The notes under the pieces were generated by a model. It saw only the letters and a program-made list of their open reading frames with translations, searched no databases and had not been told where the DNA came from. Below are positions 2,163 to 7,166 of a stretch of DNA of 23,498 nt, in pieces. The position numbers and the translations under genes were made by a program. How positions within the stretch are numbered: position 1 is the first letter of the stretch; each line of letters begins with the position of its first letter. Location: the IMG/VR virus record IMGVR_UViG_3300030021_000018, positions 1 through 23,498 of that record; one strand, written 5' to 3'. Source of the stretch: a virus (Duplodnaviria; Heunggongvirae; Uroviricota; Caudoviricetes).

Positions 2163-2238
2163 GCCGATATAGCTCAGTTGGTAGAGCAGCGCATTCGTAA
2201 TGCGAAGGTCGTAGGTTCGACTCCTATTATCGGCACCA
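2163..2238 (+). tRNA. thrW: tRNA-Thr, anticodon CGU, with encoded CCA
   Basis: 76-nt sequence GCCGATATAGCTCAGTTGGTAGAGCAGCGCATTCGTAATGCGAAGGTCGTAGGTTCGACTCCTATTATCGGCACCA folds as a cloverleaf by eye: 7-bp acceptor stem GCCGATA/TATCGGC, anticodon loop TTCGTAA, T-arm GGTTCGA. Location directly after proA matches thrW. Confidence 0.95.
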
Positions 2239-2252
2239 TTTAAATCAATAAG

Positions 2253-3416
2253 TTACACATCATTAGTACCTTCCTTATTTTTTGACTGGGACAAATTTGG
2301 GACCGATGGGTTCAGGATCGAGTCTATTTGCCGTGCGTGTTCGGTAAGGTGATTAGGTGCAAGGTGAGCATATCGACGAACCATTTCGATAGACTCCCAG
2401 CCTCCCATTTCCTGTAACACTGACAACGGGACTCCGGCTTGAACCAGCCAACTTGCCCAGGTGTGTCTCAAGTCGTGAAATCTGAAATCATCAATACCAG
2501 CCCGTCTCAGCGCCGCTTTCCAGGCTGTGTTTGCGTCATACCGCATCTTCCTTACTGTTGGCGCTTTCGTTCCGTCTGGTTTGGTACAGCTTTCCTTGTA
2601 CACAAATACCCAACGGTGATGATTCCCGATTTGTTTTTTCAATACGCGACATGCAGTATCATTCAGCGCAACGCCAATTGCGCGGTTTGATTTACTCTCT
2701 TCCGGGTTTATCCATGCCACCCGGCGCTGCATATCTATTTGTTGCCATTCAAGGTTGATGATGTTCGAGCGTCTTAAGCCTGTTGCCAGTGCAAATTCAA
2801 CAACAGACTTTAATGGCTCCGGACATTCATCAATCAGCCTTTGTGCTTCATGGGGCTCCAGCCAGCGGATCCGTTTATTCTTTGGTTGAGGCACTTTAAT
2901 AATTGGTGCCTTATCCAGCATTTTCCATTCACGCTCTGCGGCTCTTAGTAGGGCCTTTATAAATGAAAGATGCGTAGCCTTCGTTGCAACGGACGCTGGT
3001 TTTGGCGTGTATTCTGGAACAGGTTTCCCTTTTTTTCTGCATGCTTCTGCCCTGAGTTTCCAGTTTTCCTCATGACGCCGGTTCGTCATTTTCTGCATTG
3101 CTGAATAAATTTTTGATTCAGTAATGTCTCTTAGTTGCATTCCTGCGAAATGTTGAAGCCAGAATCCGATCCGGCTTTTGTCATCGTCCAGTGATTTTTT
3201 ATGTGCTTTCTCTTCAAGCCACCTGACACACGCTTCCTCGAACGTTATATCAGGTATTTCACCAAGTTTGCTGACCCGCCATGCTTCAGCCTTTAGCTTG
3301 TCATGGAGTTCTGTCGCCTGCCTTTTGTCCTTTGTTCCAAGAGACTGTTTAAATCTTTTACCGTTCGGCAATGTGAAACTGGCGTACCATATTTCACCTC
3401 TGCGGAAGAGTGACAT
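2253..3416 (-). CDS. int: Tyrosine-type site-specific integrase (P22 Int-like)
   Basis: 387-aa ORF; N-terminus [33 protein letters not shown] and C-terminal catalytic region ...[42 protein letters not shown] (R..H-x-x-R..Y pattern) are typical of tyrosine recombinases; adjacent to the tRNA attachment site. Confidence 0.93.
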
Positions 3417-3948: not shown

Positions 3949-4310
3949 TATGCTCCAGCCTCCGGTGCTTTTGGCATTACTGCCCAGTGAGTGATATTGA
4001 CGTTTTCAAGGTCCCCGACCTGAAATGTCCACTGCCATTCTCCGGTTTCTTTTTGTCCCCAGGTGTACCAGAGAGAACGCCAGCCAATTAGCCAGCCTTC
4101 TCCGTTAGCATCGAATAACAAAACACTTTCATTTGCTGGTGGCAGTTCAGTTGACACTGGTATTACTTTGTTTTCCTGTGCTGCACATTTAGCTTCAAGC
4201 GCATCGAATTTACGCACCAGGTATTCAGCATCTGTTTCATTCACTTTCAGATCTCGCGGTACACATCTCCCACGAAGAAACCCTTCCATTTCTAAAACAT
4301 TCATGCGCAT
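3948..4310 (-). CDS. Hypothetical early-left protein (120 aa, Trp-rich C-terminal region)
   Basis: ATG at 4310 with GGAG upstream; its stop overlaps the start of the next gene by 1 nt; C-terminal WxxW-rich segment (GWLIGWRSLWYTWGQKETGEWQWTF). No confident family assignment. Confidence 0.55.
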   Translation of the reverse strand: MRMNVLEMEGFLRGRCVPRDLKVNETDAEYLVRKFDALEAKCAAQENKVIPVSTELPPANESVLLFDANGEGWLIGWRSLWYTWGQKETGEWQWTFQVGDLENVNITHWAVMPKAPEAGA

Positions 4311-4837
4311 TTGCGTAACTCCGATAACTCGTTAAAACGTTCCATAAACATCCCGTAGGCATGGCCCGGTGCCTGTGGAATCACTTTGAACATCTCTGTT
4401 GCCGGGATACCTTCCAGTACAGGCCAGAAAGAGCCATCATCAAGCCCGAGATCGCGGCGTTCGGTTGCCAGCATAATGAGATCGGCATATTTCACTGGCG
4501 TGCTCATAACAGGAGGTAACCCGTATTTCTCACGTATTACGGCGTCTATTTTTTCTTCCATCCGTTTATAGTCAGGAAGAAGTCGTTTCAGTGGTGCGGG
4601 GATGTCCTGGCAATATGCTTCTGTTGCATCATGCATTAAAGCTTCAAAAGCAAATTCCTGTGGCACCAGCTGGCTGCAAAGCACCGCATGTTGGGCGACA
4701 CTGTAGAAGTGTGAAAGATGTCCTGCAAAGCGACAGATATTTGAAAGGGAAACCGCGATATCGTTAATAACGATGTCGTCTTTATTTATCCTGTCATAAT
4801 AAAAATGCTTCCCGGAAAAAGTTTTAATAAATGACAT
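4301..4837 (-). CDS. HD-domain phosphohydrolase (YfbR-like 5'-deoxynucleotidase family candidate)
   Basis: ATG at 4837 with GGAG RBS (cgtGGAGaacaaaATG); the product contains H...HD metal-binding signatures (LSHFYSVAQHAV...LMHDATEAY). The GTG at 4864 offered by the ORF track lacks an RBS. Confidence 0.7.
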   Translation of the reverse strand: MSFIKTFSGKHFYYDRINKDDIVINDIAVSLSNICRFAGHLSHFYSVAQHAVLCSQLVPQEFAFEALMHDATEAYCQDIPAPLKRLLPDYKRMEEKIDAVIREKYGLPPVMSTPVKYADLIMLATERRDLGLDDGSFWPVLEGIPATEMFKVIPQAPGHAYGMFMERFNELSELRKCA

Positions 4838-4864: not shown

Positions 4865-5381
4865 CGCGCTGAATTCGGGTAAAAGGAAGCCCTCACCGTC
4901 CGGCGATTATTGAGTCATTTACATTTCCATAAATGCCCCCGTAGGGGCGGTTAGTTTCTCCACAAAACAGAGAAGAACACCTGCGGTGGCAGCCGCCCGG
5001 ATGGATTGGGTTATGAGCCCGTCGTCCGGTGATGCTCTTCTCTGTTTTGTAAAAAGGACGGTACCAGCCGGAAGCAAGGGTACAAGCTGGTACCGCCAAG
5101 ACTACACACAGCATAAAGTTGTGGTGCCGGGTGCCTCCCGGTGCCTGGCGAAGGTTGCACACCAGGCGGGTGGGTATCCACAGAAGGTCGACTGTCAGCC
5201 TCAACCTTAACCCGCGTGCGCTGAGCCGCATTCACCACAACGCTAAGGATTCTCTCTGGTTGAAAATACTTAGCTGTTATGTGCCTGCTTTTAGCCACAT
5301 CAGGCGAGGTGGACCTAGTTATTCCCCAACAACAAGGATTCGGTTAATCTGGTTATCCCCAACAACGCAAAAGGAAAAGAA
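4865..5381. other. About 0.5 kb GC-rich non-coding region with nested inverted repeats (candidate structured RNA and/or divergent promoter region)
   Basis: No ORF with a plausible RBS; track ORFs here overlap one another in several frames. Perfect 15-bp inverted repeat 4962-4976 / 5036-5050 (acaaaacagagaaga / tcttctctgttttgt); 10-bp stem 5059-5068 / 5086-5095; long-range 9-bp pairing 5118-5126 / 5233-5241; several GC-only hairpins (4945-4958, 5127-5141, 5143-5167). Confidence 0.5.
5318..5366 (+). repeat. Two direct copies of GTTAT(T)CCCCAACAAC about 34 bp apart, just upstream of the 5382 start codon
   Basis: gttattccccaacaac at 5318-5333 and gttatccccaacaac at 5352-5366. The second copy contains TTATCCCCA, one mismatch from the DnaA-box consensus TTATCCACA. 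Confidence 0.6.
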
Positions 5382-5816
5382 ATGTCCGGTAATATCTATA
5401 CGCTGTACAAATCCCACTGTGAAAATGTTGGAAAGTATCGGGGCATTGAAATCAGTGGGGTAGTGTCATCAGTCGAAATAAGCAAAGTTGAATCAAGGGC
5501 AACATTACTTACTCTTTTGGACCTTGTCTTACATGAGCACCGGAAGAAATTCGGCACTCCCTATAATCAGTTGAATGGGAAAAAGGCTCTGGTTCACCTT
5601 ATTCTGATGAAGCATCACTGGATGCCAAAACAGATTAATGAGATGAAATTTGATGAACTTCTTCTTTCAATTCAGGATGAACTCACACTTGATAAAATAA
5701 GCGTAACCGCCCAGAAATTTTTAGATTATCGAGACTGGAGATCACAAATTCATCACTTTGATGATTTTGACGAAAATGAATGGGATCCTAATTTGTCTGC
5801 ACAATATCTAAAGTAA
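5382..5816 (+). CDS. Orphan hypothetical protein (144 aa) in an AT-rich segment
   Basis: ATG at 5382 preceded by AAGGAAAAGAA; a 435-nt open frame in visibly AT-rich DNA, where long ORFs are unlikely by chance; no homolog recognised. Confidence 0.65.
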   Translation: MSGNIYTLYKSHCENVGKYRGIEISGVVSSVEISKVESRATLLTLLDLVLHEHRKKFGTPYNQLNGKKALVHLILMKHHWMPKQINEMKFDELLLSIQDELTLDKISVTAQKFLDYRDWRSQIHHFDDFDENEWDPNLSAQYLK

Positions 5817-6052: not shown

Positions 6053-6078
6053 AAGCGTCCTGTAGGGCGCTTTTTTGT
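6053..6078 (+). terminator. Candidate intrinsic terminator (plus strand)
   Basis: aagcgtcc-tgta-gggcgctt stem-loop followed by ttttttg (6071-6077); orientation is right for stopping rightward transcription before it runs antisense into cI. Confidence 0.5.
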
Positions 6079-6241: not shown

Positions 6242-6868
6242 TTAGAGTTCGTATTGAACTCCTTTGACTACACCAATGATAAGGCAATTACCATTGATAG
6301 GGATGTTGGGATACCGAGGATTTAATGGCACTAAAAACTTTTGAGGGCCATCGATGACTAATTTTTTTACTGTAGCTTCGTTTGTTCCATCAAGTCGAGC
6401 GATGACTATTTTTCCATGACGAGGTTCTGCATCTGGATCTACAATCACTGTTGCGCCTTCTGGTATTGTTGGGAGGCCATTAGGGTTAGTCATGGAGTCA
6501 CCTTTAACCTCTAATGCAAATGAGTTATCACCAATCTTTAATGATGTATCTACCCACTTGTCCACTTCACTAAACACTTCTGCTGCCCTGCACTCAGTAA
6601 ACTGCCCAGCCTGAACCCACGATATTACAGGAACTCTGCGCATGTTTGTGACGAGTTTGCCTTCAAACTCAGCACCATAAAGAATGTAATCTATTGACGT
6701 ATTGAAGAACTTCGCTAATTTCGAAAGTGCCTCCCCACCAGGGGTATTGATGTCTTTCTCCCAGTACCCCACAGCAACGTCGCTTACTCCACAAAATTTA
6801 CCCAATTCTTTCTGGGACGTTCCGGTAACTCTTCTCAGAGCTTTTATACGCTGACCAACCGTTTCCAT
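6242..6868 (-). CDS. cI: CI/C2-type phage repressor (HTH plus S24 LexA-like autopeptidase domain)
   Basis: 208 aa; N-terminal HTH (QKELGKFCGVSDVAVGYWEKD), C-terminal S24 signature with GDSM and downstream Lys (EATVKKLV); divergent from a Cro-like gene across a 97-bp operator region. Confidence 0.9.
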   Translation of the reverse strand: METVGQRIKALRRVTGTSQKELGKFCGVSDVAVGYWEKDINTPGGEALSKLAKFFNTSIDYILYGAEFEGKLVTNMRRVPVISWVQAGQFTECRAAEVFSEVDKWVDTSLKIGDNSFALEVKGDSMTNPNGLPTIPEGATVIVDPDAEPRHGKIVIARLDGTNEATVKKLVIDGPQKFLVPLNPRYPNIPINGNCLIIGVVKGVQYEL

Positions 6869-6965: not shown

Positions 6966-7166
6966 ATGACAACTGACGATATCGAAAGCTACTTCGGCAG
7001 TATTGAGAAAGTTGCTGCTTTTTTCGGCATAACAACTGAAGCCGTTTATCAGTGGCGAAACCGTCCGGGCCAGTTAATTCCAAAAGGACGTGCAGCAGAA
7101 GCTGCATATAGAACTTGCGGACGGTTGCCATTTAAACCTGAGCTTTATGAAAAATCTAATGGATAA
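6966..7166 (+). CDS. cro: Cro-like HTH regulator
   Basis: 66-aa ORF divergent from cI, with a GGAGGG RBS; small size, basic C-terminus and position are as expected for Cro. Confidence 0.8.
   Translation: MTTDDIESYFGSIEKVAAFFGITTEAVYQWRNRPGQLIPKGRAAEAAYRTCGRLPFKPELYEKSNG

Follow-up and report, generated by a model that had tools for sequence, protein, structure and literature searches.

A candidate small RNA of the STnc100/PasD type, built like the DicF precursor, in the early-left operon of an SfII/SfV-like prophage

What is encoded by a GC-rich interval of half a kilobase, crowded with inverted repeats, in the early region of a prophage? The question arises in a stretch of 23,498 nucleotides (virus record IMGVR_UViG_3300030021_000018), referred to here as the window, which holds a prophage of the SfII/SfV-like type at thrW. 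The interval (4865-5381) lies between a cI-like gene (6242-6868) and a yfdR-like gene (4301-4837), and next to a gene for a 144-aa protein. A preliminary description of this DNA placed the start of the yfdR-like HD gene at 4837, which is most likely right and agrees with the PGAP annotation of yfdR. It took the interval itself for a structured RNA and named as options a long 5′ leader, a cis-acting antitermination element, and a stand-alone non-coding RNA possibly acting with the 144-aa protein, along with a DNA-level site. We find that the interval is genuine non-coding RNA sequence on the minus strand. Judged from sequence comparison, it appears to be a divergent member, which has escaped annotation until now, of an sRNA type known from prophages, STnc100/PasD, with the build of the DicF precursor.

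Results

Stable structure on the minus strand

GC content peaks at 0.57 across positions 4950-5249, compared with 0.37-0.46 in the flanks. A repeat finder recovered every helix listed in the preliminary description and one in addition (I2):

4962-4986 with 5026-5050: inverted repeat I1, arms of 25 nt that are 84% complementary and pair perfectly over the outer 15 bp
5242-5254 with 5262-5274: inverted repeat I2, the additional one
5059-5068 with 5086-5095: inverted repeat I4, 10 bp, perfect
5118-5126 with 5233-5241: inverted repeat I5, 9 bp, perfect, 106 nt apart

By chance, about 6e-5 perfect 15-bp inverted repeats (loop of at most 120 nt) are expected in 517 random bases. Both strands of positions 4930-5300 were folded, as the preliminary description had proposed, and stability went far beyond that of shuffled sequences. 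The minus strand was best at -166 kcal/mol (z = -6.83, equaled by none of 100 shuffles), which is 14 kcal/mol better than the plus strand (-152 kcal/mol, z = -4.03). Read on the minus strand the element runs leftward, in the sense of the early-left operon.

The interval contains three overlapping open reading frames of 112, 95, and 114 aa, and PGAP annotates it as a frameshifted hypothetical gene. We rejected a protein-coding reading: none of the three frames matches a Pfam or PHROG family, and the 112-aa frame, whose start is the AUG within the conserved GGUGAAUGCGG motif, closes after seven codons in the ST64B homolog. The proposal of a structured non-coding RNA is now backed by the fold statistics, by a covariance-model match, by compensatory changes in relatives, and by the lack of a coding signal. 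Three features were absent from the preliminary description, namely the minus strand, the U-tract that turns the 10-bp stem into a terminator, and the Rfam match.

A core domain of the STnc100 type

No RNA family had been matched to the region at first. The Infernal/Rfam scan suggested at that stage does find one, STnc100 (RF02076), below threshold. The alignment is full length and not truncated (model positions 1-206 of 206), covers 5271..5048 on the minus strand only, and scores 43.4 bits (E = 5.3e-8 in a search of 801 nt, 1.6e-6 in the whole window). The gathering threshold is 47 bits, and a scan in gathering mode returns no hit. Copies of the core in early operons all fall below this cut-off (33-42 bits). 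All structural landmarks of the family are nonetheless present:

5118..5241, minus strand: STnc100-type core domain, from the Rfam model, covariation, and RNAalifold
5241..5233 with 5126..5118, minus strand: P1, the closing helix, which is the 9-bp long-range pairing I5
After the 5′ strand of P1, minus strand: junction GGUG-AA
5230..5213, minus strand: P2 hairpin with a bulged A, followed by variable inner hairpins
5141..5127, minus strand: P5 hairpin CCGGG-AGGCA-CCCGG, abutting the 3′ strand of P1

The pairing is borne out by relatives. P1 ends in GGUG/CACC and has changes on both sides at five of its nine pairs among fifty relatives. P2 reads UGCGGC-UCAGC-GC-A-CGCG, with the geometry of the canonical UCCCCC-UGUGC-GG-A-GGGG but three pairs swapped. 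Its cells are paired in 91 per cent of cases, and the whole stem is exchanged between subtypes (UCCCCC/GG(A)GGGG versus UGCGGC/GC(A)CGCG). P5 is identical in sequence to STnc100, and dicB-type copies carry a compensatory CCUGG/CCAGG. Across fifty distinct relatives 90.6 per cent of cells are paired, compared with 40-49 per cent when the partners are slid, and ninety-eight cells have changes on both sides, which 0 of 500 shuffles match. RNAalifold predicted the same P1, P2, and P5 from thirteen window-type relatives. The covariation analysis called for in the preliminary description thus yields compensatory changes in three helices (P1, P2, and P5) among about 100 distinct relatives, in which GGUGAAU, the P2 loop with its bulged A, and CCGGG-AGGCA-CCCGG are identical. 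The most conserved nucleotides of the core sit in junctions and loops, which suggests a bound partner or a tertiary fold.

A candidate seed and a terminator

Downstream of the core on the minus strand are two further parts:

5098..5117, minus strand: single-stranded stretch UUUAUGCUGUGUGUAGUCUU, a candidate base-pairing seed, unpaired in the minimum-free-energy and centroid folds
5051..5097, minus strand: intrinsic terminator with stem GGCGGUACCAGC/GCUGGUACCGUC, from the fold, including the 10-bp stem I4

The terminator hairpin proper spans 5097..5057 and UUUUU follows at 5055..5051. Its loop of about 17 nt is unusually large, and it was overlooked by our terminator scan, which allowed loops of 3-8 nt only. 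This is also where the STnc100 model has its 3′ end aligned, and the DicF model covers UUGGCGGUACCAG (5110..5056; 19.4 bits, E = 0.15) without reaching its cut-off of 48 bits. In relatives, other hairpin and U-run terminators occupy the same position. Sixty-one of the 138 copies with enough flanking sequence have a terminator within 120 nt of the core, as do 45 of the 76 outside the window subtype.

An octamer, UGCUGUGU, is kept in six lineages (the window, ST64B, phiES15, L024, L093, and L113) that carry at least three unrelated terminators. The predicted targets of a UGCUGUGU seed are CA-rich sites such as CUACACACAGCA. Within the window the seed showed no complementarity beyond that of shuffled seeds, apart from the trivial antisense strand. 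Its duplex energy with ftsZ was no better than that of shuffles, in a crude test that also fails to single out DicF.

An extended hairpin with a tRNA-like apex

The 15-bp repeat I1 forms the next part:

4962..5050, minus strand: extended hairpin H, 89 nt, just downstream of the terminator

H consists of a stem of ~20 bp topped by two small hairpins (-45.5 kcal/mol, z = -7.3); there is an A-tract at the 5′ end, and the 3′ end has UUUUGU. We dropped the idea that wobble pairs favor the minus strand for H, as the energies on the two strands are equal (-45.4 and -45.5 kcal/mol). Reading of the sequences shows that ST64B retains the stem; one of the changes there is compensatory and two are wobble-preserving. 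Possible roles for H are those of an RNase III site, of a second terminator, and of an element to which a protein binds.

The apical hairpin at 5021..5008 reads CGGGCUCAUAACCC, the anticodon arm of initiator tRNA-fMet, with fourteen contiguous identical nucleotides that make up three G-C pairs and the CUCAUAA loop. This 14-nt arm is the longest substring that H has in common with K-12 metY. The versions of H in ST64B, P1, and SJ46 retain U33, CAU, and the G-C pairs, but there is no similarity to the tRNA outside the arm, and the arm in H stands on a 20-bp helix. As a likeness of sequence, it may be coincidental. A tRNA or tmRNA identity for the element was rejected: ARAGORN and Rfam find only tRNA-Thr at 2163-2238 (thrW).

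Flanking parts and operon setting

Three smaller parts complete the module:

5275..5312, minus strand: box of 38 nt, CCACCUCGCCUGAUGUGGCUAAAAGCAGGCACAUAACA, conserved and only weakly structured, which marks the 5′ edge of the module
5242..5274, minus strand: hairpin GCUAAGUAUUUUC...GAGAAUCCUUAGC, directly abutting the core (inverted repeat I2)
4935..4949, minus strand: small G+C hairpin GCCCC-UACG-GGGGC, from folds, at the 3′ edge of the module

Cronobacter phage phiES15 has the box with 97 per cent identity across its 38 nt, Salmonella phage 118970_sal3 has it too, and homology begins exactly at CCACC in four unrelated upstream contexts. A nut-like hairpin was considered for the box and rejected, as it folds no better than shuffles (z = -0.6) and by eye resembles neither boxA nor boxB. 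At the position of the abutting hairpin, ST64B, sal3, phiES15, and P1 have hairpins of unrelated sequence. A mosaic junction lies at the other edge, at about 4937-4948, just past the small G+C hairpin; in SfIV the homology is lost at query position 73-84. At this edge another hairpin is found in ST64B and mEp460, followed by the ribosome-binding site of the next gene. A hairpin always precedes that site.

In every relative (ST64B, sal3, phiES15, PPompW, K-12 Qin, and P1 ban) the element is oriented with the early operon, downstream of a cI/dicA-like repressor gene. A scan of the minus strand in 5272-5400, ahead of the box and of the core, gave no sigma-70-like promoter, and four different upstream contexts have, by eye, no -10 element in common. 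A putative early-left promoter lies near 6188-6160, and its transcript would cross the 144-aa gene antisense. This synteny fits a DicF-type setting, in which the RNA would belong to an operon under a cI/DicA-type repressor and have no promoter of its own. Joint action with the 144-aa protein, as first suggested, is not supported, as SfII, ST64B, phiES15, mEp460, and P1 have the RNA without that gene. The window holds no second copy of the element, for example near the Q-like gene, and no N-like protein was found between the cI-like gene and int.

Relatives and modular exchange

Matches to the interval are present in 2784 of 5426 complete E. coli genomes (about half), and 1131 have most of it. 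Genomes with the element have a median of one copy, which rules out a dispersed repeat or MITE. E. coli K-12 also has the core, unannotated, in the spacer that separates dicF from dicB, and so does phage P1 in its ban operon. Some copies lack a terminator and stand directly upstream of a start codon, that of dicB (K-12 and PPompW), tciA (P1 and SJ46), or another small ORF. Since such leader copies exist, the core may itself serve a function in cis (stability, processing, or translation). In CPS-53 of E. coli K-12, yfdP-yfdQ-yfdR are present and the RNA is absent, with the match confined to 49 nt upstream of yfdR.

The terminator and H form a 163-nt module that travels together and is 94.5 per cent identical in mEp460 and Stx2c phages. 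In the Stx2c phage it follows a 5′ domain that is 89 per cent identical to the DicF precursor domain of K-12. In P1 and SJ46 the homolog of H sits upstream of the core.

Comparison with known phage RNAs

STnc100, which includes EcOnc27/sRNA103 of E. coli O157:H7, shares with the element its length of ~200 nt, the closing helix, the GGUGAAU junction, the bulged A and U-N-N-G-C loop of P2, the CCGGG-AGGCA-CCCGG hairpin stacked on the closing helix, and a single-stranded stretch followed by an intrinsic terminator. Both are borne by prophages in Enterobacteriaceae. The element differs in its P2 (GCGGC/GC-CGC instead of CCCCC/GG-GGG), inner hairpins, and seed. It also sits in the early-left operon with the box and a hairpin in front, whereas canonical STnc100/PasD copies lie in the late region near Q and lysis genes. 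Many canonical STnc100 copies have a -10-like TANNNT hexamer at a fixed distance upstream of the closing helix, which suggests a promoter of their own. In strain EDL933 eleven STnc100 copies are transcribed and one has been verified by Northern blot (PMC5331693), and EcOnc27/sRNA103 is bound by Hfq (PMC12711010).

PasD1 and PasD2 of EPEC E2348/69 are prophage sRNAs of 172-173 nt, Hfq-dependent on Northern blots and with targets known from RIL-seq (PMC8550237). They were judged homologous to STnc100 by Zhu et al. (2026). Using the coordinates of Pearl Mizrahi et al., we find that both start at a GCAUGGUGAAU closing helix, as the core does here, and that the 5′ end of PasD1 is exactly the start of that helix. 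The PasD seed is UGUGAG, compared with UGUGUGUAG in the element, both G/U-rich and shortly before the terminator. In a pairwise comparison the element and PasD are only about 43 per cent identical, however, and PasD lacks the CCGGG-AGGCA-CCCGG hairpin. PasD sits between Q and lysis genes with an apparent promoter of its own (TTGACT, 17 nt, TTAAAA) just upstream of the 5′ end.

The DicF precursor (RF00039) of the Qin dicBF operon offers the same setting, an operon repressed by a cI-like repressor. Its layout is also shared, with a GUUGUGG-type closing helix, a single-stranded seed, and a terminator that starts UUGGCGGUAYCAG in a unit of ~190 nt. DicF is cut from the polycistronic dicBp RNA in a 190-nt form (RNase III) and a 53-nt form (RNase E), with no internal promoter (10.1101/2023.04.14.536235). 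The element is not itself DicF: true DicF in K-12 and PPompW scores 76.7 bits with the model that gives 19.4 bits here, the seed differs, and the place of the 5′ domain is taken by the STnc100 core, found downstream of dicF in K-12.

Discussion

We consider it probable that the element is a ~190-nt sRNA unit, made of a structured 5′ domain, a UGCUGUGU seed, and a terminator, that is cut from a repressor-controlled early-left transcript. With homology, structure, strand, terminator anatomy, operon position, and modular exchange observed, we infer transcription, processing, Hfq binding, and regulation in trans. The leftward transcript from the early-left promoter would contain, in order, the box, the hairpin, the 124-nt core, the 20-nt seed, and the terminator. 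Termination at 5051-5055 would set the 3′ end, and, by analogy to DicF, RNase III and/or RNase E would process the 5′ end to give the unit (5241..5051); a shorter species of seed plus terminator is possible in addition. In this product the terminator and U-tail would be bound by Hfq, and the G/U-rich seed would pair with host or phage mRNAs. H would probably act on read-through transcripts and keep the sRNA and the HD-xis-int mRNA apart, either as a site cut by RNase III or by terminating transcription a second time. Of the three options in the preliminary description, the stand-alone non-coding RNA comes closest, except that the RNA is apparently embedded in the early-left operon and not free-standing.

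One may instead read the region as a cis-acting leader or processing module, in which the core, perhaps together with the box and H, acts on its own transcript only, with any short RNA a by-product. It might protect the 5′ end, direct cuts by RNase III or RNase E, or tune read-through or translation of the downstream early-left genes. The terminator-less copies before dicB, tciA, and another small ORF speak for it, as do the concentration of conservation in junctions and loops, the hairpin always ahead of the next ribosome-binding site, and the continuous helix of about 20 bp in H, the size of an RNase III substrate. Yet six lineages, that of the window among them, have a conserved single-stranded octamer and then a strong terminator after the core, the anatomy of a trans-acting sRNA; the terminator would stop the very transcript that a leader should serve; and Hfq binding and RIL-seq targets are on record for family members of this build. 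We therefore regard a purely cis-acting module as rather unlikely. Antitermination, one of the options first named, fares worse. In that case the RNA would modify RNA polymerase and thereby carry early-left transcription past the terminators downstream. Like HK022 put, the element is a structured RNA near the start of an early operon, with terminators downstream, in a lambdoid phage in which no N-like protein was found. However, put measures about 70 nt, has two stems arranged in a V, and binds to the zinc-binding domain of beta′ (PMC9378689), whereas here a closed multi-branch structure of 124 nt is followed by a terminator, which relatives use. An identity with put was rejected, as there is no blastn match to the HK022 immunity region and putL is unrelated by eye. 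The verified relatives PasD and STnc100_4 are discrete RNAs of 170-210 nt whose 3′ ends lie at the terminator immediately behind the core, so this terminator is not suppressed by the core, and canonical copies are located in late operons that Q antiterminates. A put-like role is highly improbable.

In a further reading the hairpins would serve only to halt early-left transcription until antitermination sets in, and the RNA itself would have no function. Such a tandem transcription stop or insulator, a barrier like tL, is suggested by the strong hairpin and UUUUU with a second long palindrome following at once (A-tract 5′, UUUUGU 3′). It explains neither the conserved seed nor a 124-nt core with covarying helices and invariant loops shared by lambdoid phages and P1, and we think it very unlikely. 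The last reading, to which we give hardly any credence, takes the region for the remains of a protein gene or for a site that works as DNA, either a palindrome bound by a protein or a joint of recombination. In its favor are the mosaic junctions at both module ends, the frameshifted PGAP gene, and the equal energies of H on the two strands, which leave room for a DNA-level role of H in particular, as the preliminary description allowed for the region, though nothing argues for it. Against it, changes in relatives keep RNA pairing, also where the pair is a wobble, only one strand is matched by the covariance model, the ORFs have no Pfam or PHROG match and the 112-aa frame is not kept in ST64B, and a median of one copy per carrying genome is not that of a dispersed repeat.

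A broader reading, which we hold to be unlikely as a whole, takes the region as one instance of a set of independently exchangeable RNA modules (box, core, seed with terminator, and H). The core would be a processing or protein-binding domain serving sRNAs as well as the leaders of the host-toxic genes dicB, kil, and tciA, and H would display a mimic of the anticodon arm of tRNA-fMet. Such a mimic might attract a factor that recognizes tRNA-fMet; it could, for instance, be a ligand of MetRS or the 30S P site, or act as a decoy that draws in VapC-type anticodon nucleases such as those of Shigella and Salmonella.

For annotation, the locus is a case in which standard Rfam thresholds miss an STnc100-type RNA and spurious hypothetical proteins are called in its place. 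For the family, it extends STnc100/PasD from the late region to a repressor-controlled early-left operon, ties it to the classic DicF cassette through direct modular exchange, and brings to light that the leader of the P1 ban operon and the spacer between dicF and dicB in K-12 contain the same conserved structured domain. Testable leads on how phages process and protect RNAs embedded in operons come from this core and from the hairpin that resembles tRNA-fMet. If the sRNA is indeed made upon induction or spontaneous derepression, serotype-converting and Stx-type prophages would have a further route by which to reprogram host mRNAs.

A structured RNA on the minus strand

The interval 4865-5381 had been described, from its sequence, as a non-coding region dense in inverted repeats. 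A repeat search found every one of these repeats where it had been placed, and an additional hairpin at 5242-5274. A perfect 15-bp inverted repeat, such as the one present here, is expected about 6e-5 times in an interval of such size. Folding of 4930-5300 (371 nt) gave -166 kcal/mol (z = -6.8) for the minus strand and -152 kcal/mol (z = -4.0) for the plus strand. The three overlapping ORFs in the interval matched no Pfam or PHROG family. The AUG start of one of them, a 112-aa ORF, falls inside a conserved RNA motif, and phage ST64B closes this frame after seven codons. Given the repeats, the strong fold, and the lack of support for the ORFs, the earlier observation holds, and the region is non-coding. 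Public annotations over the RNA read 'hypothetical protein' (SfII_35) or 'frameshifted' pseudogene (PGAP), at 4893-5231 on the minus strand of the window and at 5029-5367 and 4055-4374 in two relatives (L001 and L002). Because ST64B does not keep the reading frame, these calls are probably spurious.

At curated Rfam thresholds, a tRNA was the sole match. In E-value mode, 5271..5048 (minus strand) aligned to the complete STnc100 model (RF02076) with 43.4 bits (E = 5e-8 locally, 1.6e-6 for the whole window), below the family cut-off of 47 bits. The preliminary description had found no matching RNA family; a full-length, if sub-threshold, match now replaces that statement. The features of the window are as follows.

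Features of the window
2163-2238, tRNA-Thr, adjoined by the prophage
2253-3416, minus strand, integrase
4301-4837, minus strand, yfdR-like HD 5'-deoxynucleotidase, last gene of the leftward early operon
5050..4962, minus strand, H, a separate 89-nt hairpin that includes the 15-bp repeat and begins one base past the U-tract
5055..5051, minus strand, UUUUU following a terminator stem of 12-13 bp, the centre of which is the previously noted 10-bp stem (5059-5068 with 5086-5095)
5233-5241 with 5118-5126, minus strand, helix P1 closing the STnc100 core, previously noted as a 9-bp long-range pairing
Inside helix P1, minus strand, P2, variable inner hairpins, and the invariant P5 (CCGGG-AGGCA-CCCGG), previously noted as further hairpins
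Flanking 4865-5381 opposite the HD gene, plus strand (rightward), 144-aa gene (ECs1072 family, phrog_5286)
6242-6868, minus strand, LexA-like repressor
6966-7166, plus strand, P22-type Cro

The terminator (UUGGCGGUACCAG) is covered by a weak DicF-like match. The interval is a genuine structured-RNA locus, read from the minus strand: a diverged variant, placed in an early operon, of the known STnc100/PasD family of prophage sRNAs, with the architecture of the DicF precursor. Two other roles suggested earlier, as an antitermination element or as a partner of the 144-aa protein, are unsupported.

Conservation and covariation of the core

Scanning viral contigs with a sequence pattern gave about 140 copies of the core, of which 98 are distinct, with three P2 subtypes: the canonical UCCCCC/GG(A)GGGG, UCCUUUC/GAAAGGG, and the UGCGGC/GC(A)CGCG of the window. 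In a motif-anchored alignment of 50 distinct cores, P1, P2, and P5 were paired in 90.6 per cent of cells, compared to 40-49 per cent with slid partners, though the search pattern itself fixed part of P1 and P5 and the informative positions are the whole of P2, 6-10 with 70-74 in P1, and 53 with 63 in P5. Both-sided changes occurred in 98 cells, and the observed values were reached by none of 500 shuffles. RNAalifold predicted the same three helices independently from thirteen window-type relatives. Some prophage contigs (L018, L022, L035, L044, L057, L090, L097, L102) carry two STnc100-type cores on the same strand, 370-1000 nt apart.

The interval had matches in 74 phage records. Of 5426 complete E. 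coli genomes, 2784 matched it, and 1131 of these hold at least 80 per cent of it, the median being one place in each genome. In a species-level genome set, the exact window-type motif was found only in Escherichia, Shigella, and Enterobacter, apart from two stray matches in Veillonella and Collinsella metagenome bins that are probably contamination.

Genomic position

The prophage in the window is lambdoid and belongs to the SfII/SfV/SfIV type. The region upstream of the HD gene is 4865-4934; in SfIV, two inserted genes lie between it and the RNA module. In all annotated relatives the element lies sense to an early operon, downstream of a cI- or dicA-like repressor gene:

Early-operon copies of the element
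ST64B and 118970_sal3: 5' of yfdP-like, DUF2303, and HD genes
Cronobacter phage phiES15: 5' of kil
PPompW and E. coli K-12 Qin: in the dicF-dicB spacer; in MG1655, a complete STnc100-type core (L012 2455-2590, about 1649454-1649589; unannotated, with a sub-threshold Rfam score of 34.4 bits)
Phages P1 and SJ46: within the C1-controlled ban operon, as an H-like hairpin and then an STnc100-type core directly 5' of tciA (phage P1 NC_005856, L005 2380-2660, about 69956-70236; likewise in SJ46, L006)

These copies score 33-42 bits, all under the Rfam cut-off, which accounts for their lack of annotation. For canonical STnc100 and PasD, the location is instead close to Q and the lysis genes (Zhu, Shabalina and Storz 2026). 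In the K-12 core the closing helix is GUGAUGUGGUG/CACUGCAUCAC; this core also holds the motif GGUGAAUGCGGCUGAGCGCACGCGG and the hairpin CCUGG-AGGCA-CCAGG, and ends about 25 nt short of the dicB start codon. The phage P1 core is co-directional with an annotated dicF-like region and tRNA genes, and predicted upl promoters would run antisense through it and the H-like hairpin. The GGGNUCAUAUCCC hairpin recurs in phage P1 at L005 2178.

Several other features surround the element. Direct repeats TTAT(T)CCCCAACAAC (5320-5334 and 5352-5366, within 5313-5381) lie 32 nt apart just 5' of the ribosome-binding site of the 144-aa gene; they occur only in relatives with this gene and are candidate operator or promoter elements for it. 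The 144-aa gene and a 73-aa ORF on the minus strand (phrog_1744) converge with a 29-nt overlap (5788-5816), and past the 73-aa ORF there is a terminator-like hairpin on the plus strand (6053-6072), so both transcripts would be extensively antisense to each other. Early-right regions contain C4 antisense RNA in ST64B only (79.7 bits) and IsrK in ST64B and 118970_sal3 (64-67 bits), at full Rfam significance (L007 409-597, L008 48-124), an example of how densely small RNAs are packed in such phages.

Sequences flanking the core

Two arrangements follow the core. In most canonical copies, and in the window, ST64B, sal3, phiES15, and three further contigs (L024, L093, L113), it is followed by 20-35 single-stranded nt and an intrinsic terminator. 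The octamer UGCUGUGU in this stretch is kept across the window-type group despite unrelated terminators, a pattern that usually marks an sRNA seed. In the other arrangement a ribosome-binding site comes directly after the core, ahead of dicB, tciA, or an ORF with the N-terminus MIAHHFG; for dicB and tciA the core also serves as leader. Several terminator-less canonical cores (L040, L044, L056, L106, L109, L120) have a conserved stretch, ...GAACGTAACGG...CCTGGTAAATCGGTAGCTCGGAC, about 60-100 nt 3'.

Hairpin H is predicted to be very stable, at -45.5 kcal/mol (z = -7.3). Its stem is kept in ST64B with compensatory changes, and it is homologous to the hairpin 5' of the core in phages P1 and SJ46. 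Since its energy is equal on both strands, its strand is assigned solely by context. The lower stem, of about 20 bp, is the size of an RNase III substrate, and with its A-tract and UUUUGU flanks H could be a second terminator. One of its apical hairpins (5008-5021, minus strand; CGGGCUCAUAACCC) shares 14 identical nt, including the three G-C pairs, with the initiator tRNA-fMet anticodon arm (K-12 metY). All four apex variants (window, ST64B, P1, SJ46) keep these three G-C pairs together with U33 and CAU; the likeness may be mimicry or coincidence.

A 38-nt box (5312..5275, minus strand) is 97 per cent conserved between E. coli/Shigella prophages and a Cronobacter phage (also L009 2896-2933 and L008 2845-2882). 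It is always at the 5' edge of the RNA module: in four different contexts, homology begins exactly there. The box was essentially unstructured in a fold test, and we recognised no promoter or nut-like features in it.

Proposed processing and relation to DicF

The early-left transcript would probably start at a TTGCCA-17-TAGATT site (6188-6160), placed there because a promoter scan found no minus-strand promoter-like site closer to the element. From homology and anatomy we infer that it would run through box, hairpin, core, seed (5117..5098), and terminator, and that termination and 5' processing would give a unit of about 190 nt, possibly with a shorter RNA of seed and terminator. Together with Hfq, the released RNA would act on mRNAs bearing CA-rich complements. 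A search for seed targets in ftsZ and the window itself gave nothing above shuffled controls.

Relatives of this RNA are expressed. PasD1/2, sRNAs of 172-173 nt, depend on Hfq in Northern blots; they have targets in RIL-seq, and their UGUGAG seed sits directly 5' of the terminator (PMC8550237). In EDL933, eleven STnc100 copies are transcribed, one of them confirmed by Northern blot (PMC5331693), and the Hfq-binding EcOnc27/sRNA103 overlaps an STnc100 copy 3' of stx2B (PMC12711010). The 5' end of PasD1 lies at its closing helix GCAUGGUGAAU, with what we read as a TTGACT-17-TTAAAA promoter ahead. Many canonical copies have a -10-like TANNNT hexamer at a fixed distance 5' of the closing helix, which suggests that they are primary transcripts.

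DicF has no detected internal promoter; the polycistronic dicBp transcript yields forms of 190 nt (RNase III 5' end) and 53 nt (RNase E 5' end) (10.1101/2023.04.14.536235). Counted from the first base of helix P1 (5241) through the last U of the U-tract (5051), the window unit is 191 nt, matching the long DicF form in size. At the same locus, mEp460 and Stx2c-converting phages (L133 and L134, about 2800-2500, minus strand) have the closing helix, terminator, and H of the window (163 nt, 94.5 per cent identical), but the interior of the 5' domain differs and the seed is AGCCACUGCUU rather than UUUAUGCUGUGUGUAGUC. The Stx2c phage interior is 89 per cent identical to the K-12 sequence just 5' of dicF, where the 190-nt DicF precursor has its 5' domain. 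As these phages keep the terminator and H with another interior, the STnc100 core and the DicF-precursor domain are exchangeable 5' modules before one terminator and H module.
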